Assembly (NCBI GenBank): GCA_965242485.1
Contig: CBDESM010000003.1
Span: 1,357,362-1,421,361, forward strand
Length of the DNA: 64,000 nucleotides
Reading direction: 5' to 3'
DNA from: Dehalococcoidia bacterium
GTDB lineage: Bacteria > Chloroflexota > Dehalococcoidia > Bin125
In this document: one piece after another, positions 12,777 through 50,480 of the stretch
How positions within the stretch are numbered: position 1 is the stretch's first letter
Layout of the letters: each line of letters begins with the position of its first letter
Notes under the pieces: model-generated
What the model was told of the DNA's origin: nothing
Seen by the model: the letters and a program-made list of their open reading frames with translations, nothing else
Database searches by the model: none
Translations under genes and position numbers: made by a program

Positions 12777-14225
12777 ATGGGCCTAATGGCGCTATTTCGG
12801 CGGGCGGCTGCGCTGCTCGTCGCAGTCGGGCTGCTGGCCGTTTCGGTGGCGGGCGTGTCCGCGGACAACGGGGATGAAGAGACCGCCGTGGCGGCTGTGG
12901 CAACTGAGTTGCGGCCGACGCGGGTGGTTGCCGAGATTCCTGAGGGGTATGAAACATTGTTCCCGCTTGAGTGGGGAGGTGGCAGCCTGCTTCAACTCAA
13001 GGGCCGGTTGGCTGATCTCGGTTGCGCGATGAACACGCTGTGGTTCTATGATCGGGATAGATGGAATGGATACAACCGGTATGATCTGACGTACGATTTC
13101 CCGACCAATCGGCAGTTTCTCCAGCACTATGACCAAGAGGTACCCGCCGGCACGCTCTACGCGACCTGCGCGGATCAACCAGTCGGGAACGACCTACAGC
13201 CGACGCAGATCATCGCGGAGGTGCCGGAAGAATACGACACGATGTTTGAGCTGCAATGGGGAGGCGGGTCACTGCTGCATTTCAAGGGCCGTCTTGCCAC
13301 GATGGGGTGCATCGCAAACAACATTGAGATACACGATCTCGGTGCTGGTCGCACCTACACCTACAATCAATACAACACAAACTCAACAGACAGAGCAAAT
13401 CAACAATTCCTTACCAGCTTTGAACAATTCATACCTTCTGGAGCATTTTCGGCTGATTGCTATAACATCTGTGAATTCAAAGACAGGGAGTGTGTTTCGT
13501 TTGAGGGAGCACGAGATCAACATCAATATTATACAAGTGAAAAGTATCGTCTACAGGACGCAATTTGCACTAATGACTTTCACCCTATCGTTAAAGAAAA
13601 AGTTTTCCCTATACTACCTATGCTTCCCAATATTTGTATCATTAGATCTGGAAATAACACTGGATTTTATGGAGTTGGAGGTACTACATATACTTCAAAT
13701 TCTATACTGTATACCTTAAATATACAACCCTTTATCATGATATTCAGCGACAAAAATTACTATCGTAGAGATAACGAACATAGCGATATTTTGCTCCATG
13801 CAGAAATTCATGAATTGTGTCATATAAATCAACGATGGCACTGGACTCAACGATTAGCGCCCAACTTGAGTTATAACTATTCAGCCAATGCGCCTTGGCA
13901 ATATTTGCAAGCAAGTGAACATGGGAAAGAATTTATGATTGCCATAGGATATCAGATTGGTGGTATTGATTATGTGCCAAGCGCTACGGTATACAAAGAC
14001 ATATATAGTCCAGGAAGTATTATAGAGTTATCAGCTGAATTGTGCACTATGTATATTTTAGATAAAATGGGTCTTAATACTGCTTATAATTATCGCACAT
14101 GGAACATGTGGGATAAGATATTTGAAGAAATTCCAATTCGTGACTTCAATGTAAACAAATACCTCACCCCCCAAATCCGTGAATGGCTTGAAACCTATAT
14201 GATACTCCCTGAAATCACGGAATGA
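12777..14225 (+). CDS. Secreted protein with two N-terminal tandem ~95-aa repeats and a C-terminal HExxH zinc-metallopeptidase-like motif
   Basis: Signal peptide MGLMALFRRAAALLVAVGLLAVSVAGVSA. Repeats AEIPEGYETLFPLEWGGGSLLQLKGRLADLGC... and AEVPEEYDTMFELQWGGGSLLHFKGRLATMGC.... HAEIHELCH motif. GC drops from ~65% to ~35% within the ORF, around nt 13440. Confidence 0.55.
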   Translation: MGLMALFRRAAALLVAVGLLAVSVAGVSADNGDEETAVAAVATELRPTRVVAEIPEGYETLFPLEWGGGSLLQLKGRLADLGCAMNTLWFYDRDRWNGYNRYDLTYDFPTNRQFLQHYDQEVPAGTLYATCADQPVGNDLQPTQIIAEVPEEYDTMFELQWGGGSLLHFKGRLATMGCIANNIEIHDLGAGRTYTYNQYNTNSTDRANQQFLTSFEQFIPSGAFSADCYNICEFKDRECVSFEGARDQHQYYTSEKYRLQDAICTNDFHPIVKEKVFPILPMLPNICIIRSGNNTGFYGVGGTTYTSNSILYTLNIQPFIMIFSDKNYYRRDNEHSDILLHAEIHELCHINQRWHWTQRLAPNLSYNYSANAPWQYLQASEHGKEFMIAIGYQIGGIDYVPSATVYKDIYSPGSIIELSAELCTMYILDKMGLNTAYNYRTWNMWDKIFEEIPIRDFNVNKYLTPQIREWLETYMILPEITE

Positions 14226-29702: not shown

Positions 29703-29791
29703 CTCAGGCTCCTCTCGCCCGTATCCAGCTTCCGTAATCCTAGCCCCGCCGGACCTTGCGGGGCGCGGCGGCCCCGCGATACTCTGGCCGC

Positions 29792-30268
29792 ATGTCCGAA
29801 GGCCGAACCCATCACGAAGTCGCCGAAGCGACCGTCGCCTATCCCGCAACGGGACTTGCCGCTTTGCGCGAGCGGCTGGAGGAGTTCGACGGCTGGCTGA
29901 CGCCGGAGCAGCACCGGGTGATCGACGCGGAAGAGGACGGGGTGCCCGTGCTCTGCTTGCAGCTCTGGGTGCGCGATTACCAGGACATCGGGGCGCGCTG
30001 GGAGGCGCGCGACACGGGCGAGCCGCATCCGCCCACGCTCTACGCCTGGCTCAAGTTCCGCTCCCACCGCAAGGACAAGGCCTGGACCGATGCGGAGATC
30101 GAAGCGGCGCTGGCCGACCTGCACCAAGGCGCGCGCGAGATCAAGGACTCCGAGCCGCTCGAACGATCTCCCGATCCGCCGCCGCCCGGCTACGACGATT
30201 ACGACGTCGAGGATTGGTTCATGGACCTGAGATACGGTTTCACATGGCAGCGTCATCTGAAGTCGTGA
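29792..30268 (+). CDS. Hypothetical protein (copy 1 of a tandem duplicate), occupying the antitoxin position upstream of a PIN gene
   Basis: 158 aa, start MSEGRTHHEV. The start context ctggcNgcATGTCCGAAG is shared with copy 2. Tryptophan-rich, protein-like composition. Overlaps the VapC start by 25 nt. Confidence 0.5.
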   Translation: MSEGRTHHEVAEATVAYPATGLAALRERLEEFDGWLTPEQHRVIDAEEDGVPVLCLQLWVRDYQDIGARWEARDTGEPHPPTLYAWLKFRSHRKDKAWTDAEIEAALADLHQGAREIKDSEPLERSPDPPPPGYDDYDVEDWFMDLRYGFTWQRHLKS

Positions 30269-30684
30269 TCGAGCGCCTGCTCGACACCAACGCCGTGTCG
30301 AACTCCCTCAAACCCCGGATCGCGGCGGCGGTCGCTCCCTACCTGCAGACGCCCGGAGCCTCCGCGATCTCGTTCCAAACCGAGGGCGAGCTGGGCGTTT
30401 GGGCCTCATCGCCGACCATCCCTGCGGTCCACGCGCGGCAGATTCGCGCGTTCGTGCGCGATGCGCCGATTCTCTATGCGAATGAAGCGGTCGTCGCCCA
30501 CTACATCACGATCGTCCGTCGCCGGCGCAACGCGGGCCAGCCCGAAAACGTCAAGGACGCCTGGATCGCCGCTACCGCTCTCGCCTACGGCCTGCCCCTG
30601 ATCACCTTCGACCGCCACGGCTTCAACGACATTCCCGACCTCGATCTCACCCTGCTCCGCCTAGCCGGCCGGCTCCCTCGCTAA
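30244..30684 (+). CDS. vapC: PIN-domain ribonuclease, VapC-like toxin
   Basis: MAASSEVVIERLLDTNAVS...DAWIAATALAYGLPLITFDRHGFNDIPDLDL shows the conserved acidic residues of the PIN fold. Confidence 0.7.
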   Translation: MAASSEVVIERLLDTNAVSNSLKPRIAAAVAPYLQTPGASAISFQTEGELGVWASSPTIPAVHARQIRAFVRDAPILYANEAVVAHYITIVRRRRNAGQPENVKDAWIAATALAYGLPLITFDRHGFNDIPDLDLTLLRLAGRLPR

Positions 30685-30693
30685 TCTGGCTGC

Positions 30694-31185
30694 ATGTCCG
30701 AAGATCGAACCCGGCACGAGTCCACCGAAACCGCCCCGAGGCTTGCCGCGCTGCGCGAGCGGTTGGAGACGTTTGACGGCTGGCTGACGCCGGAGCAGCA
30801 CCGGGTGATCGACGCGGAGGAGGACGGGGTGCCCGTGCTCTGCTTGCAGCTCTGGGTGCGGGATTACCAGGACATCGGGGCGCGCTGGGAGGCGCGCGAT
30901 GCGGGCGAGCCGCATCCGCCCGCGCTCTACGCCTGGGTCAAGTTCCGTTCCCACCGCAAGGACAAGGCTTGGGCCGATGCGGAGATCGAAGCGGCGCTGT
31001 CCGACCTGCGCCAAGGCGCGCGCGAGATCAAGGACTCCGAGCCGCTCGGCAGGTCCCCCGACCCGCCGCCACCCGGTTACGAGGACGACTACGACGTCCA
31101 AGACTGGTTCATGGACCTGAGATACGGCTTCACATGGCAGCCGGCTGCGCCCGCCCGACTTGATCGGGCAGGGCGGATTGCCTGA
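30694..31185 (+). CDS. Hypothetical protein (copy 2 of the tandem duplicate, no PIN partner)
   Basis: 163 aa. About 93% identical at protein level to 29792..30268 over about 150 residues, with a different C-terminal tail. Confidence 0.5.
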   Translation: MSEDRTRHESTETAPRLAALRERLETFDGWLTPEQHRVIDAEEDGVPVLCLQLWVRDYQDIGARWEARDAGEPHPPALYAWVKFRSHRKDKAWADAEIEAALSDLRQGAREIKDSEPLGRSPDPPPPGYEDDYDVQDWFMDLRYGFTWQPAAPARLDRAGRIA

Positions 31186-31233
31186 AGCGCGGACGACGGG
31201 CCGCATTCGCAGCGCGAATGCGGCCCGCTTGGA

Positions 31234-32043
31234 TTAGCTGCCGGAGCCGGAGCCCGAACCGCTGCCGGACCCGGACCCACTGCCAGAGCCTGAACCGCTG
31301 CCCGAGCCAGATCCGCTACCGGAGCCGGAGCCCGAACCGGAGCCGCTGTCGCCGTCGGAAGTTGCGGGGGTGGCAACGGGCACTTGGCTGATGCCTTCGC
31401 CACGATGGGTGTCGAGCTGGCTGGACCAGTAGGTGATCCGGTAGGCGTTGGAGCTCACGGTCGTCCAAGTCTTCCCGTTTTCGGACGGGTAGACGATGTC
31501 CTCCTCGGGGATCGGCAGCGGGTCGCCGTTCCGCATGAACGGGGTCAGCGTGTGCGTGCAGACGTAGTCCTCGACCCGCGTCCACTCGTACCAAGTCTGC
31601 CGCCCGCCGCCGGCGTATGTGACTTCCTTCGTGCGCCCCGTCGGACGCCGGCTGTAGACGTGGTTGACCTCGCAGGTCATCGTCCTCTGGAATGACAGCT
31701 GCGGGTAGCGGCAGGTCTGTTCCGGATAGCCCTCCGGGTAGCCGGAGTACCTCGCGGCGCAAGCCGCGATCCGCGCCTCCTCCGCGGCTTGGGCGTCATC
31801 GTCGCCGCCCGAGCCTTCGCCTGATCCTTCACCTGATCCGTCGCCGGATCCTTCGCCCGAGCCTTCGCTTGAATCCTCGCTCGTCCCTGAGCCCGACCCG
31901 GAGCCTGAGTTGGAATCGTCCGACGGCGATTGGGCGCTCGCCGTCGCGGCCAGCGCGAAGACCGCGCCGACCGCCAGCAGGGCGCCGATCAGAAGCCGGC
32001 CGATCCATTCGCCTGATCCCCTGAGCCTGGTGAAGTCCAGCAT
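31234..32043 (-). CDS. Secreted protein with Gly/Ser-rich low-complexity segments and a C-terminal (GS)n tail
   Basis: Start MLDFTRLRGSGEWIGRLLIGALLAVGAVFALAATASA (signal peptide) with GAGGAG RBS. Lies 18-60 nt downstream of the RM gene on the same strand. The C-terminus is 25 x GS. Confidence 0.5.
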   Translation of the reverse strand: MLDFTRLRGSGEWIGRLLIGALLAVGAVFALAATASAQSPSDDSNSGSGSGSGTSEDSSEGSGEGSGDGSGEGSGEGSGGDDDAQAAEEARIAACAARYSGYPEGYPEQTCRYPQLSFQRTMTCEVNHVYSRRPTGRTKEVTYAGGGRQTWYEWTRVEDYVCTHTLTPFMRNGDPLPIPEEDIVYPSENGKTWTTVSSNAYRITYWSSQLDTHRGEGISQVPVATPATSDGDSGSGSGSGSGSGSGSGSGSGSGSGSGSGSGSGSGSGS

Positions 32044-32102
32044 CGATCTTCTCCTCGCGGTTTCCGGTGTAGTTTCACCATACACAACCTTCGCCGCGCA
32101 AC

Positions 32103-34937
32103 TTACTCACCCGGCTCCGTCAGCCGGCGGTTCGAGACCACGGGCTCCGAGGCCAGCATTCGCCGCAGCGGCGTCAGATCCGGCAGCCCCAGCACCTCCG
32201 CCAAGCCCGCATCCAGCCGTTCCCGCGCCGCGCAATCCGCCATCTCCGGCAAGGGCAGCAGCGTCTCCTCCGCCAATTCCTCGAACAGCGCCGCTAGCCG
32301 CTCCAGCTGCCCATCCGCCAGCTCGCGGACGTCGAGCACCGGCATTTCTTCCAAGTCGCCCTTCTTGAGGCTGACCCAGCCGCCTTCGGTTGTCGTTCGC
32401 GTGCCGAGCAGCGTGAGCAGTCCCAAACTGCTGTTCAGCCACAGCGCGAGGCCAAAATCATGCAGCTCTTCCGTGGTTTTGATCTCCCAGAAGACATTCG
32501 AGAGGACGTCCCGGTCGCATTTCATCGAAACCGTGCGGACGGTGTCCAAGCGCAACCGCTCCGCAACGAGCAGTCGCGCCGCCTTTTGCCAGAGATCCGT
32601 GGCGCTCTTCAATCTGCGTCCGGGTCGTGGTTTCGAGAGCGCTGCTAGATGTTTATTCGGTGCAACGCTCAGCGTTGTTCGTTCATTGGTGTCATGTCCG
32701 GCTACGAGCGGGTATGCCGTGTTGGTATCCGTATAGGTGAATCCGTCCAAGATGTCGCGGCGGTCCGGGCCGATGCTGCCGAGCTCGCCGAGCGGACAGA
32801 TTGGAAGCTCGGCTCTCGTCGACTGTCCTGGTACTTGGACCGTGCTACCGGCGAGCAGTGAGTGTGCTGCACGGGCGAGGTCGCCGCGCGAAAACTGCAC
32901 TCCGTCCCATTGTTCTCCCGTCGCGTCGCCTTGCGGCAGCGATATTGCTTCGCCGATGTGGCGGCCGTCGAGTTCGAGCAGGGCTGCGCCCGTTGCTTCG
33001 AGCTCGGCCGGGGGCGTCGCTCCGATCACGTCGGCGAGGCGGCCCGCGTCAAGCACGTTGTCGGGGTTTTCCCACAGATTCACGTAGGTCGTGCGCGACT
33101 CGCCTGTGTCCCCCTCCGCCCGTTTGGTCGCGATCAGCAGCGCTTCCGAGAGGTCGGTGCTGTCGGAGAAATTCCAGCGCTGCGGGTCGTGCGACGCGAT
33201 CACCATGTCCAAGCGGAAGTCGCGCTCGATCAGCGCCCGCGTCTGCTGCCACGAGCGGCCCGTGCAGACGGTCAGCGGCAGTACCAGCGCCAAGCGCCCC
33301 TCGCCGGCGCGGATTTTCGGCGTCACCGCGGCGACGAATGCAGCGCCGACGCCGGCTACGGCGGATGCGCCCTGCGACTTGAGCCGGGCCTTGATCTCGG
33401 ACTGGATTCGCGTCCGCTCCCTGTCCGGCAGGCTGCCGAAGAGCAGGCTCGAACGGGTGAACGGCGGGTTCATGATCGCCAAATCAAGCGGCGGCAGCAC
33501 CGCCGTATCAACTCCTTCTATTACCCCCCCCCCCCCCCCACTTATAGTATTCATCCCGCGTACCTTGGCGGGAGCAACGACCGCGACCGACTCGCCCGCG
33601 CCGAGCGGGTACTGCACGGCGGCCTCGCTCTGGCCGAGGAAATCGAGCGAGCCGAGCTTGACATCGTCGCTCGATGCTTCCAGCGGCATCACGTACAGGT
33701 TCATCCGGTCGAAGTGGATCGCCGGGTTCAGCATCGCCAAGCTGGTCGCCGCGAAGTGCACCGCCGAAAGCTGCACGTCGAACCCGTGCAGCGCCTGCTC
33801 GACCATCACCTTGTGCAGCGCGTCCTTCTTCTGCCCGCCCGCGGTCACGTGCCGCCGTTCCGCCTCCGACGCGACCGCCATCAGCAGCGTTCCGGTGCCG
33901 CAGGCGATGTCCGCGATGTTCAGCGAGGCCGGGAATTCGTGCTGCGCCCAATCCGTCTGCGGCGGCCACTGGTGGAAGACCAGCCGCGCCAGCATCGTCG
34001 CCGCCGGCACCGACGTGTAGTACGCCCCCGTGAATTTGGCGTCGGATAGCAGCGTGTGGAACAGCCGCCCCGACAAGTCGTGCCCCTCGACGTCGCGCGT
34101 CTGCCTGACCGCGTCGATCAGCGGGTCGATCACCGCGGCCTGCGCCGGCGCGGGCGCGTCGCAGAGGATGTCCAAGAGGTCCGCCGCCAGCTGGAAGACC
34201 GGCACGTAGTCGATCTCGTCGCAGATCGTGCGCCAAGCGTCGCGCAGCCCCGGCGCCCCGCGCTTGGCCGCCTCCGAAACCGTGGGCACCTGCGCGTGCG
34301 CGGCCGAGAGCCGCTCCTCGAAGGCGAGCGCGTTGAACAGCACCAGGCAGCCGATCCGCAGCGCCGCCGCCCGCTCCTTCTCCTTGTCCGACTCCGCGAT
34401 CGCGTCCGCGATCCGCTGCCCGATCCGCGCGTGCCGCGAGACTTCCTTGGCCGCCGTCTCCGTCGCGTAGCGCACCGCGCCGGCCGCCGCGGCCACGCGG
34501 TCGACGCCCTCGACGTGCAGGGGCAGCGCCCGCAGGAAATCGGCCAGCTGATGCGCGCTGCCGCTGCGCAGCTGCGGTTCCGGCTCGACCCGCTCCCGCG
34601 TGCTGTGCAGGTACCAGCTCAGATCCTCCGCCTCGGCTAGCGCCCGCCCCACGTCATCGGCCGTGTCCAGCCCCTGCGGATACAGCACCCCGATCCGCCC
34701 GATCGCGGCCGGGAACTCGCCGATTCGCTCCGCCAGCTGCGCGTCCAACTGCGCCCGTGCCCCCGCCCATTTGCACTCGACCAGCGCGAACTCGTCCCCC
34801 GCGAGCCGCTCGACGCGGATATCCGGCGCATCCCCGTCAAGCCGCTGCTCCGCCGCCGCCGCGATCCCCCGCGCCTTCAGCAACTCCCCCAGCAGCGTAT
34901 TCGCCGCCTCCTCCCGAGACCTCCATCGCCGCACCAT
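32103..34937 (-). CDS. Single-polypeptide nuclease + gamma-class N6-adenine DNA methyltransferase + C-terminal target-recognition region. Type IIL/IIG (MmeI-family-like) restriction-modification enzyme.
   Basis: 945 aa from ATG 34937 (MVRRWRS...). PD-(D/E)xK-like N-terminus (APDIRVERLAGDEFALVECKWAG). GAYYTS (the MmeI-type 'HYTS' motif X). Motif I IADIACGTGTLLMAV. Motif IV IMNPPF. A long C-terminal region. The listed ORF extends to a GTG at 35123 through a degenerate duplicated segment. Confidence 0.65.
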   Translation of the reverse strand: MVRRWRSREEAANTLLGELLKARGIAAAAEQRLDGDAPDIRVERLAGDEFALVECKWAGARAQLDAQLAERIGEFPAAIGRIGVLYPQGLDTADDVGRALAEAEDLSWYLHSTRERVEPEPQLRSGSAHQLADFLRALPLHVEGVDRVAAAAGAVRYATETAAKEVSRHARIGQRIADAIAESDKEKERAAALRIGCLVLFNALAFEERLSAAHAQVPTVSEAAKRGAPGLRDAWRTICDEIDYVPVFQLAADLLDILCDAPAPAQAAVIDPLIDAVRQTRDVEGHDLSGRLFHTLLSDAKFTGAYYTSVPAATMLARLVFHQWPPQTDWAQHEFPASLNIADIACGTGTLLMAVASEAERRHVTAGGQKKDALHKVMVEQALHGFDVQLSAVHFAATSLAMLNPAIHFDRMNLYVMPLEASSDDVKLGSLDFLGQSEAAVQYPLGAGESVAVVAPAKVRGMNTISGGGGGVIEGVDTAVLPPLDLAIMNPPFTRSSLLFGSLPDRERTRIQSEIKARLKSQGASAVAGVGAAFVAAVTPKIRAGEGRLALVLPLTVCTGRSWQQTRALIERDFRLDMVIASHDPQRWNFSDSTDLSEALLIATKRAEGDTGESRTTYVNLWENPDNVLDAGRLADVIGATPPAELEATGAALLELDGRHIGEAISLPQGDATGEQWDGVQFSRGDLARAAHSLLAGSTVQVPGQSTRAELPICPLGELGSIGPDRRDILDGFTYTDTNTAYPLVAGHDTNERTTLSVAPNKHLAALSKPRPGRRLKSATDLWQKAARLLVAERLRLDTVRTVSMKCDRDVLSNVFWEIKTTEELHDFGLALWLNSSLGLLTLLGTRTTTEGGWVSLKKGDLEEMPVLDVRELADGQLERLAALFEELAEETLLPLPEMADCAARERLDAGLAEVLGLPDLTPLRRMLASEPVVSNRRLTEPGE
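33524..33539. repeat. Homopolymeric C16 (G16 on the coding strand) inside the RM gene
   Basis: Read directly from the sequence: ttaCCCCCCCCCCCCCCCCactt. On the coding strand it encodes SGGGGGV in-frame, and it is flanked by unusually AT-rich codons. Confidence 0.9.
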
Positions 34938-34939
34938 GC

Positions 34940-35207
34940 CCCCATTGTCGCACAGCGCCCCGGCCGTCCCGTTTAACCGCGCGTGCCGCGAGATTTCCTT
35001 GGCCGCCGTCTCCGTCGCGTAGCGCACCGCGCCAGCGGCGGCCACGCGGTCGACGACCTCAATGTGCTGGGGCAGCGCCCGCCCCATATCCTCGGTCGTG
35101 TCCAGCCCCTGCGGATACAGCACCCTGATTTACCCGATCGCCGCCGGGAACGCGCCGATTCGCTCCGCCAACTGCGCCCGGGCCCCCGCCCATTTGCACT
35201 GGTGCGA
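34940..35207 (-). pseudogene. Degenerate duplicate of codons ~45–115 of the RM gene (contains an in-frame TAA)
   Basis: Minus-strand translation reads ...QCKWAGARAQLAERIGAFPAAIG*IRVLYPQGLDTTEDMGRALPQHIEVVDRVAAAGAVRYATETAAKEISRHAR. This is homologous to the RM gene segment KWAGARAQLDAQLAERIGEFPAAIGRIGVLYPQGLDTADD...SRHAR. About 90% DNA identity to 34420–34760. Confidence 0.4.
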
Positions 35208-35224
35208 TGGGTTATGCTAGATTG
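35195..35224 (+). promoter_or_regulatory. Candidate sigma70-like promoter (TTGCAC-N18-TAGATT) for the low-GC inserted gene
   Basis: It sits exactly at the junction between GC-rich repeat sequence and the low-GC insert, about 50 nt upstream of ATG 35275 (RBS GGAAGGGG). Confidence 0.2.
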
Positions 35225-35274
35225 AAAGCAACGGGGTGGCGAGTGTTGCTCCGAACACAGGAAGGGGCGGGGCG

Positions 35275-36141
35275 ATGCGCTGGGTACTTGTGGCTACAAT
35301 CGCGGTAATCGCAATTGCGCTGGTGGGAGCAATTCTATTTCTTTTTCAATCTGAGCAAGAGCAAGTCGAACCTCAGCCTACTCCACGCACATCCGTTGGG
35401 CGAACAGTCGTAGATGATGCGTATAATAATCCAGTTCCTGTGGATTTCAAGGATGGCAGCACAATTGACGTGCGTCCCGCAATTTTGATAACTGATAAAG
35501 ATGATTGGCGTTTGGCTGTGCAATTTAGACATAGATCAAGTCAACGGCAAAGTCAGCGCACCGTTCTTGGCAGAGTCAAGTCGTCGCAAATTGCTGAAAC
35601 GCGCATGGGCGATTGTTTTGCAAGCAAAGTTGTTCCTACGGGGGCAATAGTGCGCGACTCTGTATTGGCAGTGAAGGTCATCGCTTGTACGCACGATAAT
35701 GGCGATATTACACTTGGCATTCAAGGCTATCGCGCGAATGAACATGGCGATAAAGGCGAACGTTTCATCACCACACGTATTAAAAAAGAGCAACAACGTT
35801 CAGATATTTGGTTTAGTTCTACATTTACCAAAAATACTTACGATCTTATGCCGTGGCACTACACAGCACCACGAGCAGTGCCGACGTATCCTAGACAGTC
35901 TGATGTTCCGTCGTCCAGCCTTGAAGTTGATACAGGTGCTAGGTCGCGGGAAGTTTGTGATATTCACGGCGGGCGATGGACTGGGGGGCGATGCTTGAAA
36001 TATCACCAGCGCCCCATTGTTACGCAATCCGTAGAGTCTGCTTGCCGTGCCGTTTGGGGTGAGACGCAGCAATATTCAGAGTGTGTGTCTTTCTGTAAGT
36101 CAAATCCCACACTGCGGTCTCCAATGTGCGGGCGGCGCTGA
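35275..36141 (+). CDS. Hypothetical membrane-anchored protein encoded in a ~40% GC insert
   Basis: MRWVLVATIAVIAIALVGAILFLF (N-terminal TM) followed by a Cys-containing soluble domain. Composition strikingly different from the flanking ~70% GC DNA. No family recognised. Confidence 0.45.
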   Translation: MRWVLVATIAVIAIALVGAILFLFQSEQEQVEPQPTPRTSVGRTVVDDAYNNPVPVDFKDGSTIDVRPAILITDKDDWRLAVQFRHRSSQRQSQRTVLGRVKSSQIAETRMGDCFASKVVPTGAIVRDSVLAVKVIACTHDNGDITLGIQGYRANEHGDKGERFITTRIKKEQQRSDIWFSSTFTKNTYDLMPWHYTAPRAVPTYPRQSDVPSSSLEVDTGARSREVCDIHGGRWTGGRCLKYHQRPIVTQSVESACRAVWGETQQYSECVSFCKSNPTLRSPMCGRR

Positions 36142-36150
36142 TGTCCACCT

Positions 36151-36315
36151 TCACTCAACCAATGCGAACTTGCCTCTCGCCAGCCGCTCGACGCGGATAT
36201 CCGGCGCATCCCCGTCAAGCCGCTGCTCCGCCGCTGCCACGATCCCCCGCGCCTTCAGCAGCTCCCCCAGCAGCGTATTCGCCGCCTCCTCCCGAGACCT
36301 CCATCTCCGTGCCAT
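36151..36315 (-). pseudogene. Diverged 5' fragment (start codon + 54 codons) of an RM-gene copy
   Basis: Encodes MARRWRSREEAANTLLGELLKARGIVAAAEQRLDGDAPDIRVERLARGKFALVE*, versus MVRRWRSREEAANTLLGELLKARGIAAAAEQRLDGDAPDIRVERLAGDEFALVECK in the intact gene. Together with 34940–35207 it forms one split pseudo-copy of the first ~115 codons. Confidence 0.4.
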
Positions 36316-36339
36316 GCCCCCGATTGTCGCACAGCGCCG

Positions 36340-43815: not shown

Positions 43816-46254
43816 TCAGTCGGCGCGGACGGCTAGGGGGATGGTGCCGCTGACGTCGTCGTCGTAGAGCTGGTCGATTTGCTGTCTTGAGAGGCTGGTG
43901 AGGCGGGTGAGGACGGTGCGGGTGTCGCGGCCGAGGGTGGGCGAGGGGGAGTCGATGGCTTCGTTGAGCCAGTTGCGGAAGCGGTAGGGCTGGCGGGGGT
44001 AGCGCTTGGCGCCGGCGTAGGTGTGCTGTTGCGTGATGAAGAATTTCCGCGCGGCGAGATGCTCGTCTTCGAGCAGGTCTAGTCCGGTCGCGACCAAGGC
44101 GGCGTTGACGCCGGCGGCTTGCAGTGCGGCGGCGAGCGGCTTGGCTTCGCGTTGGGCGATTTCGGCGGTGATTGCGGAATCGAGCGCGTCGCGTTCGGCG
44201 CCGCGGTGCTCGAAATCGCCCCAGCGTTCGAGCCATTCGGACCTGCCGAGCACGCCGGCGAGGGCGGCGAATTCGCGGTCGTCGGCGCAGGCGATGGCGA
44301 TCCAGCGCTGCGCAAGCGGCTCTTCGCCGTCGGCGCAGCGGTAGGTGTTGTGGGGCGCCATGCGCGGGTGGAAGTTTCCCGCCCGGCCGGGGTCGTCGCC
44401 GGAGATCGCGTAGGCGGTGAGGGCGTCGCCGAGGAACGACGTCGCGGTTTCGGTTTGGGAGAGGTCGACGTGGCAGCCGCCGGGTTCGCCGGCGGCGATC
44501 AGGCGGTCGCGGCGTTCGAGCGCGGAGAGCAGGGCCAGCGCGCCCATCACGCCGGCCAGCGGGTCGCCGCCGGTGGTGCCGCTGAAGATGGGCTGGTCGT
44601 CGGGATAGCCGGTGAGGTGCGGCAGGCCCGACATTTGCTCGGTCGTGTTGGCGAAGGCGGTGTAGTGGCTCCAGCTGCCGGTCAGGCCGAAGCCGGGCAT
44701 CGAGAGCATGATCAGATCGGGGTTGATCTTGCGCAGCGCTTCCCAGTGCAGGCCGAAGTTGCCCATGACGCGGGGGGTGTAGTTTTCGACGATGACGTCG
44801 GCTTCCTCGACCATTTCGCGGATTGCGTTGGCCCCGCGGTCGTCGTTGAGGTTGAGCGTGATGCCCTGCTTGTTGCGGTTGACCCAATTGAACTGGGGGG
44901 CGTTTTCCCAGAAGCGTTCGATATCGGCGGAGCCGCCGGCGCGCCAGCCGTCGATTCGCTGCACGGACTCGACTTTGATCACGTCGGCTCCGGCGTCGGC
45001 CATCATCAGGGTCGTCATCGGGCCGGACATGAACATCGAGAGGTCGATCACGCGCAGGCCTTCGAGCGGCCGCTCGCGGCCGTCGGAATCGCCGCCGCGC
45101 ATGCGCCGGTCGGCGCGCCAGATGTTTTGTTCGCGCGCGGTTTCGGTATGTTCGCCGAGCAGCGGCGTCGGCGCGCCCAATTCGCGCTGTTCGCCGAACA
45201 TCCAGGGAATGCCGGGCATGCGCACGCGGCCGGCGCGGGGATGGTCGAACTCGAGCAGGAACTTGCGCTCGCGGTGCGGCAGCAGATTCAGGACTTCGGC
45301 GAGGTCCGGCACCAAGCCGAAGGGGATGCGCCAGGCCTGCGCGTCGTGGAAGATCTCGTCGGCCGGCCGGTCGCGGGTCTGTTGCGCCAGTTCGTCGGCG
45401 ACGTCGCGGGAGTTGGCATAACGCGACCAGGCGTCGGTGAAGCGGGGGTCGTCGATCAGCTCGGCGCGGTCGAAGAACTGGCACATCACTTCCCACTGCG
45501 CCTGGGTCAAGGTATTCGCGCCGACCCAGCCGTCGGCGGTGGGCAGGATGAACGACGGGGCGGGGCCGATATCGGCGCGGCGGATGCCGATATCGCCGGT
45601 GTAGTCGTAGCGCTGGGTGACCAGCAGGGCCATATTGATCGCGGCTTCGAGCACGGAGACGTCGACGTGATCGCCGCGCCCGGTCTGCTGCTGCGCGCGC
45701 ACGGCGATCAGGGTCGCGACGGCGGCGTATGCGCCGGCCAGGGTTTCGGGCACGTTGCCGCCGAGTTGGAGCGGTTCGCGCTCGGCGCGGCCGCAGAGGT
45801 GGGAGAAGCCGCCCGAGGCGCAGGCGGTGAGGTGGCTCCATTTCCAGCCGACGCGGGGACCGCTCGAACCGAAGCCGCTGACGGTGACGAGGATCAGGCC
45901 GGGGTTGGCGGCGGCGAGGTCGTCGTAGCCGATGCCGCGCTCGGCCAGCTGGGGCTCCGGCTCGCCGGCGATGACGACGTCTGCGCCGGCGAGGATGCGG
46001 TCGCGCAGGTCGCGGTCGTCGTCGCCGAGGACGATGCCGCGCTTGCTGGTGTTGGCGTAGAGGAAGGGCGCGCTGGCTTCGGGATCGTCGGCGTCGGCGA
46101 AGGGGCCGCGGCGGCGCGCGGAGTCGCCGCCGGGCGGCTCGATCTTGATCACGTCCGCGCCGAGATCGCCGAGCAGCTTGGCGGCGAAGGGCGCGGCCAG
46201 CCCCTCCGAGATGTCGGCCACCCGCAGCCCCGAAAGCGCGCGCACGTCGGTCAT
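43816..46254 (-). CDS. CoA-transferase family III (CaiB/BaiF) protein with two tandem CoA-transferase domains
   Basis: Start MTDVRALSGLRVADISEGLAAPFAAKLLGDLGADVIKIEPPGGD. A second copy of the motif appears at LEGLRVIDLSMFMSGPMTTLMMADAGADVIKVES. 812 aa. Confidence 0.7.
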   Translation of the reverse strand: MTDVRALSGLRVADISEGLAAPFAAKLLGDLGADVIKIEPPGGDSARRRGPFADADDPEASAPFLYANTSKRGIVLGDDDRDLRDRILAGADVVIAGEPEPQLAERGIGYDDLAAANPGLILVTVSGFGSSGPRVGWKWSHLTACASGGFSHLCGRAEREPLQLGGNVPETLAGAYAAVATLIAVRAQQQTGRGDHVDVSVLEAAINMALLVTQRYDYTGDIGIRRADIGPAPSFILPTADGWVGANTLTQAQWEVMCQFFDRAELIDDPRFTDAWSRYANSRDVADELAQQTRDRPADEIFHDAQAWRIPFGLVPDLAEVLNLLPHRERKFLLEFDHPRAGRVRMPGIPWMFGEQRELGAPTPLLGEHTETAREQNIWRADRRMRGGDSDGRERPLEGLRVIDLSMFMSGPMTTLMMADAGADVIKVESVQRIDGWRAGGSADIERFWENAPQFNWVNRNKQGITLNLNDDRGANAIREMVEEADVIVENYTPRVMGNFGLHWEALRKINPDLIMLSMPGFGLTGSWSHYTAFANTTEQMSGLPHLTGYPDDQPIFSGTTGGDPLAGVMGALALLSALERRDRLIAAGEPGGCHVDLSQTETATSFLGDALTAYAISGDDPGRAGNFHPRMAPHNTYRCADGEEPLAQRWIAIACADDREFAALAGVLGRSEWLERWGDFEHRGAERDALDSAITAEIAQREAKPLAAALQAAGVNAALVATGLDLLEDEHLAARKFFITQQHTYAGAKRYPRQPYRFRNWLNEAIDSPSPTLGRDTRTVLTRLTSLSRQQIDQLYDDDVSGTIPLAVRAD

Positions 46255-46358
46255 CGCCAGCCTCCTGCGCCCACAGGCTAGCGTCTCGGCGCGCGGAGTC
46301 CGCGAATGTCCTGCATAGAATGCCCGTGCCATGCTCGCGTCGCTGGAGGAACCGACTG

Positions 46359-47840
46359 ATGCCCCGCAATCTTGAAAATCGCACCATCTTCACTGGCGAC
46401 TGCCTCGACATCCTGCGCGGGGTCAACTCGGATTCGGTGGACCTGATCTACCTCGATCCGCCGTTCAACTCAGATCGGACCTACGGCAACGATTTCGATG
46501 ACCACTGGCAGCTCGACCGGTTGCCGGAGGCCGTGATGAAGCGGCTGCTGGAGACGATGGGGCGGGTGACGCAGGACAACGACGGGGCGGGCGCTGTGAT
46601 CAACGCCGCCGGCAAGGTGGCCGGCGAGTCGACTCAGGCGTACCTCACCTACATGTTCGAGCGCATCGCGGAGATGGCGCGGGTCTTGAAGCCGACGGGG
46701 AGCATCTACCTGCATTGCGACGACACGGAAGGCGCGTGGCTGAAGGCGGTGATGGATGCCGTGTTCGGGCGCAGCTGGTACCGCAACGAGATCGTCTGGC
46801 AGCGGACGAGTGCGCACAACGATGCCGGGGCATTCGGCCGCGTCGCCGATTACGTCCTGTTCTACAGCCGTTCGCCGATCAATGAAGCGGCCGTCGTCAC
46901 GCCGCTGAAGGATGAGCACGTGGCCGCGAAGTACCGGCATGACGATGGCGATGGGCGGGGCAGGTACCGCGCCGACGGCGACCTGACGGGGGCCGACCTC
47001 TCCGACGGCGAGAGCGGACGGCCGTGGGGCGGTTACGACCCGTCCGCGCGCGGGCGGCATTGGGCGGTGCCCAAGGCCCGCGGGCGCGGCGAGTATGCCG
47101 ACTGGATCGCGGAGAACATCATTCCGGGATATGAGAAGATCGAGGGCATCCACGCCCGTTTGAATGAGCTGGATGCGGCGGGTTTGATCTACAGGACGAG
47201 CAAGGGCACGCCCAACATCAAGCGCTATCTGAGCGCTTCAAAGGGGCAGGTGCCGACGGCGATCTGGACCGACATCCCGCCTGTGAACTCGCAGGCCGCA
47301 GAGAAGACCGGATATCGGACCCAGAAACCGCTCAAGCTGCTCGAACGAATCATCGCTGCCTCGTCAAACGAGGGCGACCTCGTGCTCGATCCGTTCTGCG
47401 GCTGCGCGACGGCGTGCGTCGCCGCCGAGCGCTTGGGCCGGGATTGGGTCGGCATCGACCAGAATGACGAAGCGCTCCAACAGGTCAAGATCCGGCTCGC
47501 CCAGCAGGAACCCGGAATCGCGCTCTGGGCGGAGAAGGTCGTGCACCGGACGCGCCCGCCCAAGCGGACGGATGAAGGCGACCTGACGCTTTCGGATCCG
47601 ATTCCGCTCTCGGTCAAGCGCGAGATGTACGAGGAGCAAAACGGACGCTGCAATGCGTGGACGATCGGCTGCGAAGAACGCCCTTCGATCTTCAACATTG
47701 AGGTGGATCACATCCGCCCCCGCAGCGCCGGCGGTGCGCACGAGCGGTCGAATCTCCAACTCCTCTGCGGCTGGTGCAACCGCTCCAAGCGTGACCGCAC
47801 GATGGATTACCTCGCACAGCGCATCGCCGAAAGAGGGTGA
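46359..47840 (+). CDS. DNA methyltransferase (PF01555 N4/N6, beta-class) fused to a C-terminal HNH endonuclease domain
   Basis: Start MPRNLENRTIF after GGAGGA. LIYLDPPFNSD (motif IV near the N-terminus). LVLDPFCGCATAC (motif I near the C-terminus, hence beta-class). C-terminal EVDHIRPRSAGGAHERSNLQLLCGWCNRSKRD is an HNH motif. Confidence 0.75.
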   Translation: MPRNLENRTIFTGDCLDILRGVNSDSVDLIYLDPPFNSDRTYGNDFDDHWQLDRLPEAVMKRLLETMGRVTQDNDGAGAVINAAGKVAGESTQAYLTYMFERIAEMARVLKPTGSIYLHCDDTEGAWLKAVMDAVFGRSWYRNEIVWQRTSAHNDAGAFGRVADYVLFYSRSPINEAAVVTPLKDEHVAAKYRHDDGDGRGRYRADGDLTGADLSDGESGRPWGGYDPSARGRHWAVPKARGRGEYADWIAENIIPGYEKIEGIHARLNELDAAGLIYRTSKGTPNIKRYLSASKGQVPTAIWTDIPPVNSQAAEKTGYRTQKPLKLLERIIAASSNEGDLVLDPFCGCATACVAAERLGRDWVGIDQNDEALQQVKIRLAQQEPGIALWAEKVVHRTRPPKRTDEGDLTLSDPIPLSVKREMYEEQNGRCNAWTIGCEERPSIFNIEVDHIRPRSAGGAHERSNLQLLCGWCNRSKRDRTMDYLAQRIAERG

Positions 47841-49479: not shown

Positions 49480-50480
49480 CCAACCTGAAGGTCAGCGCCT
49501 TCGACGCTCGGTCGGCCTCGTCAGCGCAGGGGCGACCAGCTCCCCGCGGACGCGCCTCGGGCGCGTTTCGGCTGCGCCCAGAATAGGCGATCCGCGACTG
49601 TGGGGCGCGGGACGGGCCGGAGGGGGCGGGCGGGGCGCTGGGCGAGGGCGGAAGTGGCGTACCGGCGGAAGATCGCAGAGGTGGAGAATCTGGATGCGAA
49701 GCAGGAGGAGATCGAGGTGGAACCGCGGCAGTTGGGAGCCCGCACCCGGCTGCACAGATCGTCCCGATCAGCCGTTCGGCCTTGCCGTTGGTGCGCGGGG
49801 TGCAGGACCGTGTGCGCAAGTGGCGCAGGTCCCAGCGCCCGGCACTCTTCGTGCCAGCGGTCGTTGAGGCAGGCGGGCCCGTTGTCGGTCATCACCTGCT
49901 CAACCGCGAGGCCGCGTTTGGCGCATCAGCGGACGGCGCGGCGCAGAAAGGCGACTGTGTGCTCGGCCCGCTTCGAGGGCGGCGCTTCGGCGCAGGCCAG
50001 CGCGAGCGATCGTCCACGGCGATGTGCGGGTATGCCAGCCGGTACCGGGGCAGAGCGTGCGCGGGTCGGCCAGGATCACCTTGTCGGGCTGGTAGAAGCG
50101 GTCCAGATTCTTGATGTCGACGTGCAGCAGCTCGCCTCACCCGCTCGCGTTCGTAGCGCAGCACCAGCGGCTTCGAAGCCAGTATCTGGCACGAGATGCC
50201 GAACCGCCGCCGCCCCTGCCGACGGTCGAGGCAGGTGCCGCCCAGCTCCACCAGCGGTGCACGGTCAAGCGGCCCGCTTCCTGCCCGCGGGCTGTCTCCG
50301 CGATGCTCGTCCTGCCTCGGCTAGGCGCACCGCGCGCAGCCTCGTCTCGATCGAATGGCGCATCTGCAGCCCCGCTCCGCCGCCACCAGCCAGCGGGACC
50401 CCTTGGGGGGGCATCTCGTTCAACACCAGTCTCGTAGGCGGTCCCCACCCAATCAGCTGTCCCGAACCTCTGTGGTTTTG
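49480..50480 (-). mobile_element. Degraded IS481-family transposase (pseudogene, at least 3 frameshifts and internal deletions)
   Basis: Minus-strand fragments in different frames: HTH-like MRHSIETRLRAVRLAEAG; LTVHRWW; GELLHVDIKNLDRF (catalytic DDE region); HIAVDDRSRW; MTDNGPAC...; PRTNGKAERLIGTI (C-terminal motif). No intact ORF. Confidence 0.65.

Follow-up and report, generated by a model that had tools for sequence, protein, structure and literature searches.

A probable single-chain, Type IIG-like restriction–modification enzyme encoded in a Dehalococcoidia genome

Single-chain enzymes of Type IIG/IIL are a well-known kind of restriction–modification enzyme and, as genes, ordinary components of bacterial defence. 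Hallmarks of the MmeI family, or Type IIL, are methylation of a single DNA strand and cleavage, dependent on two sites, about two helical turns away. MmeI, Tth111II and TaqII are lone fusions that do without a companion methylase, unlike RM.BpuSI, the operon of which holds two, M1 and M2 (PMC3185434). MmeI is divided into five domains (residues 1–155, 156–300, 301–620, 621–825 and 826–919), and three adenine-box residues, His314, Phe484 and Trp570, show absolute conservation across its family (PMC4833311). In Haloferax volcanii, HVO_A0006 and HVO_A0237 have been proposed to make up a split Type IIG enzyme, wherein a protein of ~220 amino acids, comprising a PD-x14-ExK nuclease and part of the connector, would complement a nuclease-less Type IIG homologue (PMC4389544). 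Here, we analyse a 64,000-nt stretch of DNA from a Dehalococcoidia bacterium (Bin125; GenBank assembly GCA_965242485.1, contig CBDESM010000003.1, positions 1,357,362 to 1,421,361), referred to as a whole as the window and numbered from its first letter, which encodes a nuclease–methyltransferase of 944 amino acids on the minus strand. We consider it likely that this gene specifies a lone Type IIG-like restriction–modification enzyme, that is, a restriction–modification–specificity (R-M-S) fusion, whose own methyltransferase protects the host and whose tethered nuclease cuts. Judged by profile comparisons, the protein appears to be built like a lone Type IIG/IIL enzyme but to belong to a separate sequence family, not to that of MmeI. 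Computation establishes how the protein is divided into domains, that catalytic and cofactor-binding residues are conserved, that partner genes are lacking and that the fold resembles those of solved Type IIG/IIL enzymes; the activities, the recognition sequence, the cleavage distance and the choice between single- and double-strand methylation we infer.

Domain architecture and active sites

The gene (Table 1) is intact, and its codon-position GC content (0.71/0.48/0.85, with GC at third positions (GC3) of 0.85 against 0.48 at second positions) together with more than 1000 full-length homologues marks it as genuine. A mechanical scan for open reading frames (ORFs) had drawn the minus-strand frame wider, at 32103..35123. 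We rejected the resulting 1006-amino-acid ORF from 35123 as a real gene: the remnant of a duplicated copy of the 5′ end lies in frame and thereby creates a spurious extension. Translation most probably starts at the ATG at 34937, because the stretch upstream of it is degraded duplicate, the alignment with the 81%-identical homologue of locus L003 opens at 34969, and homologue alignments begin at residue 3–8 of the 944-amino-acid protein. An earlier note on this DNA, made from its letters alone, had assumed the same start, which is thus borne out, and all the motif strings that it quoted occur in the translation, namely PDIRVERLAGDEFALVECK (residues 38–56, PD…ECK), GAYYTS (304–309), IADIACGTGTLL (341–352) and IMNPPF (488–493).

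Table 1 Features of the nuclease–methyltransferase gene and its immediate surroundings, in window positions
Feature	Position	Strand	Basis
Nuclease–methyltransferase gene, 944 amino acids, intact	32103..34937	-	ORF and translation
Predicted PD-(D/E)xK nuclease domain, N-terminal, residues 1–127	34557..34937	-	Model, conservation, 1y88 profile match
PD-x14-ExK motif; putative catalytic residues E30, P38-D39, E54-x-K56	34770–34826 (PD-x14-ExK)	-	
Predicted helical connector, all-helical, residues 128–300	34038..34556	-	Model secondary structure
Predicted γ-class amino-methyltransferase domain, Rossmann-type, residues 301–622	33072..34037	-	Invariant motifs, Pfam matches of relatives, hhalign
Motif X, GAYYTS	34011–34028	-	
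Motif I, IADIACGTGTLL (contains DIACGTG, residues 343–349)	33882–33917	-	
Motif IV, IMNPPF (NPPF, residues 490–493)	33459–33476	-	
Putative α/β domain resembling target-recognition domains, residues 623–865	32343..33071	-	Foldseek alignments
Predicted C-terminal helical bundle, residues 866–944, and stop codon	32103..32342	-	Model, pLDDT >90
(GS)n-tailed protein gene, 269 amino acids, GAGGAG ribosome-binding site	31234..32043	-	Translation, repeat count
Perfect 15-bp hairpin directly past the (GS)n stop codon, between convergent genes; candidate terminator for one or both	31196..31228	-	
Degraded partial tandem duplicate of the enzyme gene's 5′ end (blocks 36145–36338 and 34977–35200)	34977..36338	-	

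An initial AlphaFold run, fed with close homologues only, reached a predicted local distance difference test (pLDDT) score of 64.7 and did not resolve the methyltransferase core; the model used here stems from a second run, for which the alignment was more diverse, with a pLDDT of 86.4 and a predicted template-modelling (pTM) score of 0.87. From the N- to the C-terminus, this model predicts a PD-x14-ExK nuclease, a helical connector, a γ-class N6-adenine methyltransferase, a domain resembling target-recognition domains (TRDs) and a helical bundle, which in the model spans residues 866–935; residues 444–476 of the methyltransferase domain form a low-confidence, disordered loop. The nuclease core is predicted to fold as α-β-β-β-α-β, with D39 opening β2 and E54 and K56 on β3. 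A profile of the N-domain, compared with the PDB, matched 1y88 (AF1548, a PD-(D/E)xK protein; E 0.0025), the aspartate and ExK of which aligned to D39 and E54/K56; the residues that the earlier note had proposed for a PD-(D/E)xK-like block thus align with catalytic positions. Searched against Pfam, isolated N-domains returned no meaningful family.

Conservation was assessed in a wide alignment of 45 sequences sharing 27–38% identity with the window protein. Invariant in this alignment are E30, D39 and E54 of the nuclease domain as well as, in the methyltransferase part, T308 (motif X), D343, G347, G349, T350 and L351 (motif I) and N490-P491-P492 (motif IV), with F248, D287, G290, G385, D387, G429, R567, S591, T594 and E598 as further invariant columns. 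The γ-class motif order X, I, IV is present, and its strings GAYYTS, DIACGTG and NPPF are invariant or nearly so.

Structural comparison with the PDB by Foldseek ranked the Type IIG enzyme RM.BpuSI (3s1s) at the top (E 4e-19), with an alignment over the whole of both chains. Next came M.BseCI and CamA, both methyltransferase and TRD proteins, with template-modelling scores of 0.65–0.70 (normalised to the target), and then the PglX/BrxX proteins of bacteriophage exclusion (BREX) systems at E about 1e-11 and DrdV at about 2e-10. The alignments with M.BseCI, CamA and BpuSI run on through residues 623–865, which suggests that this segment corresponds to their TRD regions; in Pfam, no sequence family covers it, neither in the window protein nor in its relatives. 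The PD…ExK block, motifs X, I and IV and the predicted domains agree with the single-chain nuclease–methyltransferase with a recognition region that the earlier note had described. Its estimate of about 450 residues for that region holds as a length, in that 451 residues follow NPPF, but some 130 of these belong to the methyltransferase core, followed by the TRD-like domain and the bundle.

BpuSI (PDB 3S1S) shares with the window protein the order nuclease–connector–γ-class methyltransferase–TRD, and its helical spacer (residues 175–289) is in the same place as the connector (PMC3185434). The two differ in the nuclease motif (PD-x15-ExK in BpuSI, PD-x14-ExK here) and in motif IV (NPPY versus NPPF), their sequence identity is just 13%, and nothing in the window family corresponds to the companion methylases of the BpuSI operon. 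DrdV (PDB 7LO5/7LVV) is likewise a single-chain nuclease–methyltransferase–TRD enzyme, but it matches less strongly and over part of the chain (about 680–700 aligned columns), and PDB sequence searches gave no significant similarity to it. In fact, a single-sequence search of the PDB with the window protein returned no match at all.

A family apart from MmeI, in fused and split forms

The likeness to MmeI is one of build. Its five domains are nearly colinear with those of the window protein (1–127, 128–300, 301–622, 623–865 and 866–944), its length of 919 residues is close to 944, its helical spacer (156–300; PMC4833311) sits where the connector does, and both proteins are lone fusions without a companion methylase (for the MmeI family: PMC4833311, PMC2731913). 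Motifs X, I and IV are in register, as GA(H/Y)YTS, D(P/I)ACG and NPPF; motif X of MmeI reads GAHYTS against GAYYTS here, as checked on PDB 5HR4, with which our MmeI query is 100% identical over 919 residues, so the earlier note was right to call this motif MmeI-like.

Taken as membership of the MmeI/Type IIL family, however, the resemblance fails. At E <= 0.1, the window protein and eight relatives match none of the five MmeI Pfam families (MmeI_N, MmeI_hel, MmeI_Mtase, MmeI_TRD and MmeI_C; PF20464–PF20467 and PF20473), all of which are carried by 120 out of 120 MmeI relatives among the matches listed. Aligned by hhalign, the two family profiles meet at a probability of 23% (E about 9e-4) and only from motif X to about motif VI. 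The PADLOC model for MmeI-type IIG enzymes gives MmeI 1278 bits and is not among the matches of the window family, on which the best of any PADLOC model reaches 37.5 bits. Of the adenine box, the position of His314 is taken by Tyr306 in the window protein (Y in 29, F in 13 and N in 3 sequences of the wide alignment); the phenylalanine of NPPF is conserved, and the hhalign alignment stops short of Trp570. The spacing from the aspartate to ExK is 9 residues in MmeI (D70…E80) and 14 here. Finally, the entropy of the TRD-like domain relative to the protein mean is 1.17× among close and 1.07× among distant relatives, as compared to 1.75× for the TRD of the MmeI family at similar divergence; the most variable part of the window family is the nuclease domain.

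How widespread is this family? Homologues of about 941 amino acids with 60–63% identity are common in metagenome-assembled genomes of Dehalococcoidia/Chloroflexota, and a HMMER search of 1.84 billion cluster representatives returned 2932 matches, 832 of them at E <= 1e-30 and many aligning unbroken over residues 6–939 at 30–40% identity. Among the organisms that carry it are Alpha-, Beta- and Gammaproteobacteria, Acidobacteriota, Armatimonadota, Planctomycetota, Desulfobacterota and Bathyarchaeia, and also Ca. Fervidibacter sacchari PD1 (NZ_CP130454.1). Full-length members are also present on two mobilizable plasmids of cultured Proteobacteria, pUSP4 of Aminobacter sp. MSH1 (L084; WP_108610813.1) and pSTJ1 of Sulfuricystis multivorans (L085; WP_126447967.1), where they sit among genes of the sort usual in plasmid establishment regions (a zincin-like metallopeptidase, DUF5710, DUF3560, PRTRC genes and a small N-6 DNA methylase). 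Two Dehalococcoidia genomes carry two paralogues each (L011/L028 and L024/L026; 62–67% identity), which differ to a similar degree in the nuclease (54–59% identity) and in the TRD (55–60%). One relative of 1096 amino acids (P0334) has an N-terminal fusion to an XRE-type helix-turn-helix domain (HTH_31, E 6e-11), recalling the controller proteins of restriction–modification systems. Tailed viruses of Halorubrum and Haloferax (phage records H6–H15) encode proteins annotated as 'type IIG restriction modification enzyme', which match only the connector and methyltransferase (residues 181–621) at 26–27% identity.

The few NCBI names on family members are 'N-6 DNA methylase' or 'hypothetical protein'. 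Distant members pass the Pfam threshold for N6_Mtase (PF02384) and one passes that for Eco57I (PF07669); overall, Pfam, NCBIfam and PADLOC reach the methyltransferase core at most, and the sequence family itself appears uncharacterised. Going by these comparisons, we would regard it as a large family without name or characterisation, set apart from the MmeI, Eco57I and BpuSI families.

The neighbourhood was surveyed by clustering all ORFs within 6 kb of the gene at 81 related loci. At 14 of these, a separate, co-oriented ORF, mostly of ~170–225 amino acids (one ORF call has 364), lies directly upstream of a 'short form' of the methyltransferase gene of ~750 amino acids. These upstream ORFs are recognised by a profile built on residues 1–190 (E 4e-21 to 9e-63) and retain E30, PD39 and E54-x-K/E, and the gene boundary falls within the connector, at about residue 190. 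The family thus comes in two forms, one fused and one split into two genes, which links the nuclease/connector segment functionally to the methyltransferase–TRD part. Indeed, no neighbour but this segment has a fixed place next to the gene; a handful of unrelated families of metabolism or transport turn up at 4–12 of the 81 loci, in variable positions, and neither a helicase nor a second methylase, hsdS/hsdR, brx or pglZ recurs at these loci. Contexts annotated with Pfam in five lineages also vary, from toxin–antitoxin genes and a transposase to housekeeping and plasmid leading-region genes, and show no recurrent partner. In arrangement, the split loci match the Haloferax proposal, from which they differ in that their two genes are adjacent and co-oriented, whereas those of Haloferax occupy separate places on pHV4 (PMC4389544). 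Unlike the Haloferax pair, the window gene is of the fused form.

Proposed mechanism and rival explanations

How might such an enzyme work? The TRD-like and γ-class methyltransferase domains would clamp a specific DNA sequence, and the NPPF active site, using S-adenosylmethionine, would methylate a flipped-out adenine at N6 in host DNA. Unmethylated, foreign DNA would be cut some distance from the site by the PD-x14-ExK nuclease, which the helical connector would position. Because there is one nuclease site per chain, two enzyme molecules are probably needed to cut both strands. As there is no companion methylase, protection of the host would have to come from the enzyme's own methyltransferase, as it does for MmeI, Tth111II and TaqII.

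Several observations weigh against this interpretation. Support is computational for every family member. The window protein falls under the Pfam threshold for N6_Mtase (and under that for Eco57I as well), its PADLOC matches are partial ones of <=35 bits to generic restriction–modification methylase models, and MmeI (5HR4) is not among the best 50 structural matches. Position 56, the lysine of ExK, is K in 23 and E in 19 of the 45 aligned sequences, so that about 40% of the distant relatives have exchanged the catalytic lysine for glutamate. Some restriction enzymes, such as BamHI, can do with a glutamate here. The entropy values, moreover, point to a TRD-like domain without excess variability, which would be unusual if selection favoured new specificities. 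We rejected the high full-length conservation of the family (60–70% identity) as an argument against restriction–modification, since MmeI relatives are equally conserved.

A rival view takes the protein mainly for an orphan or regulatory DNA methyltransferase of fixed specificity and not for a restriction enzyme; its nuclease-like domain would have lost its activity or taken on another task, such as DNA binding or oligomerisation. In its favour are the lysine exchange and a TRD-like domain that varies no more than other parts of the chain. Such a role would also accord with the strong structural matches to CamA and M.BseCI, which have no nuclease activity, and with the many copies that lie among housekeeping genes. 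We nevertheless hold it to be unlikely: E30, D39 and E54 are invariant family-wide, separately encoded N-domains included, which speaks for conservation of an active site that depends on metal. Nor is the nuclease domain ever lost, being either fused or encoded by the adjacent gene. Family contexts are variable and mobile or defence-like, with toxin–antitoxin modules and transposases nearby, mobilizable plasmids, the one helix-turn-helix fusion and, in some genomes, diverged paralogue pairs.

Alternatively, several genes could make up the system, with this protein as its methyltransferase subunit (as BREX PglX, as Type I HsdM or in a Type ISP/III-like system) and the partners encoded elsewhere. 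A family-profile search of the PDB gave non-significant matches to HsdM (E 0.08), PglX (8c45, E 0.088) and CamA and no others, and PglX/BrxX (PDB 8C45, 9EWZ) share the γ-class methyltransferase and TRD core fold and match this part well in structure. PglX has no PD-(D/E)xK nuclease, however, and acts with BrxA/B/C, PglZ and BrxL. The window protein brings its own nuclease and TRD-like domain, unlike a Type I HsdM, which has no TRD of its own and would be expected next to hsdS/hsdR; its PADLOC match to PglX is negligible (E 2.5e-3, 14.5 bits). The window contains no brxA/B/C, pglZ or brxL gene and related loci conserve none, and brx, pglZ, hsdS and hsdR are likewise missing from the window, from the 81 loci and from the Pfam-annotated contexts, in agreement with the earlier note, which had preferred a standalone enzyme over a BREX methylase. 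The closest relative, at L003, does have a UvrD/PDDEXK_1 helicase-nuclease gene directly upstream, which we rejected as a partner given that it is missing from the window and the other loci. All in all, a subunit of this kind is very improbable. Scarcely more credible is a functional two-gene operon formed with the downstream gene for a (GS)n-tailed secreted protein, which lies on the same strand, has a ribosome-binding site and host-like codon usage (GC3 0.82–0.88), and is separated by a gap of 59 nt (not 60, as in the earlier note, which had the orientation right). This gap folds no better than its shuffles (z −0.45) and contains no predicted terminator-like site, and a strong hairpin (−37.1 kcal/mol, z −3.9, 0 of 200 shuffles as stable) follows only past the second gene. 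Against an operon with a shared function, a 970-nt segment holding the (GS)n gene and this hairpin is missing from the syntenic L003, and no (GS)n relative was found in 83 related loci (flanks up to 10 kb) or in a scan of JGI metagenomes. Least probable, to the point of being hardly tenable, is an NPPF methyltransferase acting on something other than DNA, such as rRNA (m2G) or protein glutamine, in the manner of RsmC, RsmD or PrmC. The only Pfam and NCBIfam matches of the window protein, all sub-threshold, are to MTS (PF05175), Methyltransf_25, PrmC and CpaM-type models, but they cover motif I alone; over its full length the fold is that of DNA methyltransferases with TRDs and of Type IIG enzymes, relatives pass N6_Mtase and Eco57I, and the protein is fused to a PD-(D/E)xK nuclease.

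Genomic surroundings and meaning

A lone restriction–modification enzyme, which we continue to favour, sits here in changeable surroundings. The (GS)n protein has a hydrophobic, signal-like N-terminus ending in ...ATASA|Q, an acidic G/S-rich linker, a Cys-containing core of ~145 residues and a GS tail; the signal-like segment, the acidic part and the tail were already recognised in the earlier note, but the tail is S(GS)18 and not (GS)25. Pfam returned nothing but low-complexity noise for it. Because it is absent from L003 and all other loci, the gene is not a conserved companion, and we take it to be a lineage-specific insertion rather than a partner of the enzyme. Read-through transcription across both genes is nonetheless plausible, since the gap is free of structure and terminator and the strong hairpin stands after the (GS)n stop codon. 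Elsewhere, the window and L003 are syntenic: both have a gene for a Leu/Phe/Val-type dehydrogenase, that for the methyltransferase and, in a block with a PIN gene, ORFs of 159–170 amino acids. In L003, a distance of 16 nt separates the stop codon of the methyltransferase gene from the convergent gene.

Upstream, the partial tandem duplicate is revealed by direct repeats (D2, D3, D6, D10 and D11) at 87–97% identity. It covers 21 nt of leader and about 170 codons; its decay shows in the ECK codon, where TGC has become TGA, and in the loss of about 100 nt from its interior. A low-GC insert (35201–36144; GC 0.50, GC3 0.42) breaks it directly behind the ECKW codons and has a plus-strand ORF at 35236–36141, the 301-amino-acid product of which has an N-terminal transmembrane helix and no Pfam match. 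The place of duplicate and insert is occupied by the helicase-nuclease gene in L003.

On the other side of the (GS)n gene, at 29756–31185 (+), two copies of an ORF of 163–170 amino acids (84% amino-acid identity; no Pfam match) lie on either side of a PIN-domain gene (30268–30684); in L003 there are three besides the PIN gene, and the whole may represent a repeated toxin–antitoxin-like module beside the enzyme gene. About 11 kb from the enzyme gene, 46149–47840 (+) encodes an N6_N4_Mtase domain (PF01555, E 3e-44) that continues at its C-terminus into an HNH endonuclease domain (E 1e-9), the second restriction–modification-like gene of the window. A type II hammerhead ribozyme (Rfam RF02276) is found at 49507–49573 (-), as a full-length match of 46.4 bits against a gathering score of 37, in a stretch of lower GC at 48–52 kb. 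At 13001–14000, GC falls sharply to 0.44, compared to about 0.69 window-wide, perhaps because of a further foreign insert. The window's other large ORFs belong to metabolism or housekeeping.

What, then, does the enzyme mean for its host and for its family? Within the window, the case is ordinary: a mobile gene for defence, placed in a variable islet with toxin–antitoxin-like genes and a recent insertion at its flanks. The only unusual aspects are the non-hypervariable TRD and the natural split forms. These might reflect a hitherto undescribed enzyme lineage, wherein the recognition module is under purifying rather than diversifying selection and the enzyme works equally well as a two-gene split, a reading that we offer as speculative and more doubtful than not. 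This lineage may comprise hundreds of clusters at 50% identity in Chloroflexota, Pseudomonadota, Acidobacteriota, Armatimonadota and Bathyarchaeia. If true, it would imply a conserved target, either one motif or a DNA feature, and a nuclease subunit acting in trans, a mode unlike the specificity-shuffling paradigm of MmeI, and would possibly offer a modular scaffold for engineering. Lone R-M-S fusions have proved re-engineerable for new specificities, and a new scaffold that occurs in nature both fused and split could be useful in this respect. Annotation tools based on Pfam or PADLOC would record a match to the methyltransferase core at most and would not call these proteins single-chain restriction enzymes. 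Should the enzyme be active, the data presented here would give the first glimpse of a large family, made up of lone restriction–modification enzymes of a single chain, that lies outside the current domain and defence libraries and abounds in Chloroflexota of the Dehalococcoidia type.

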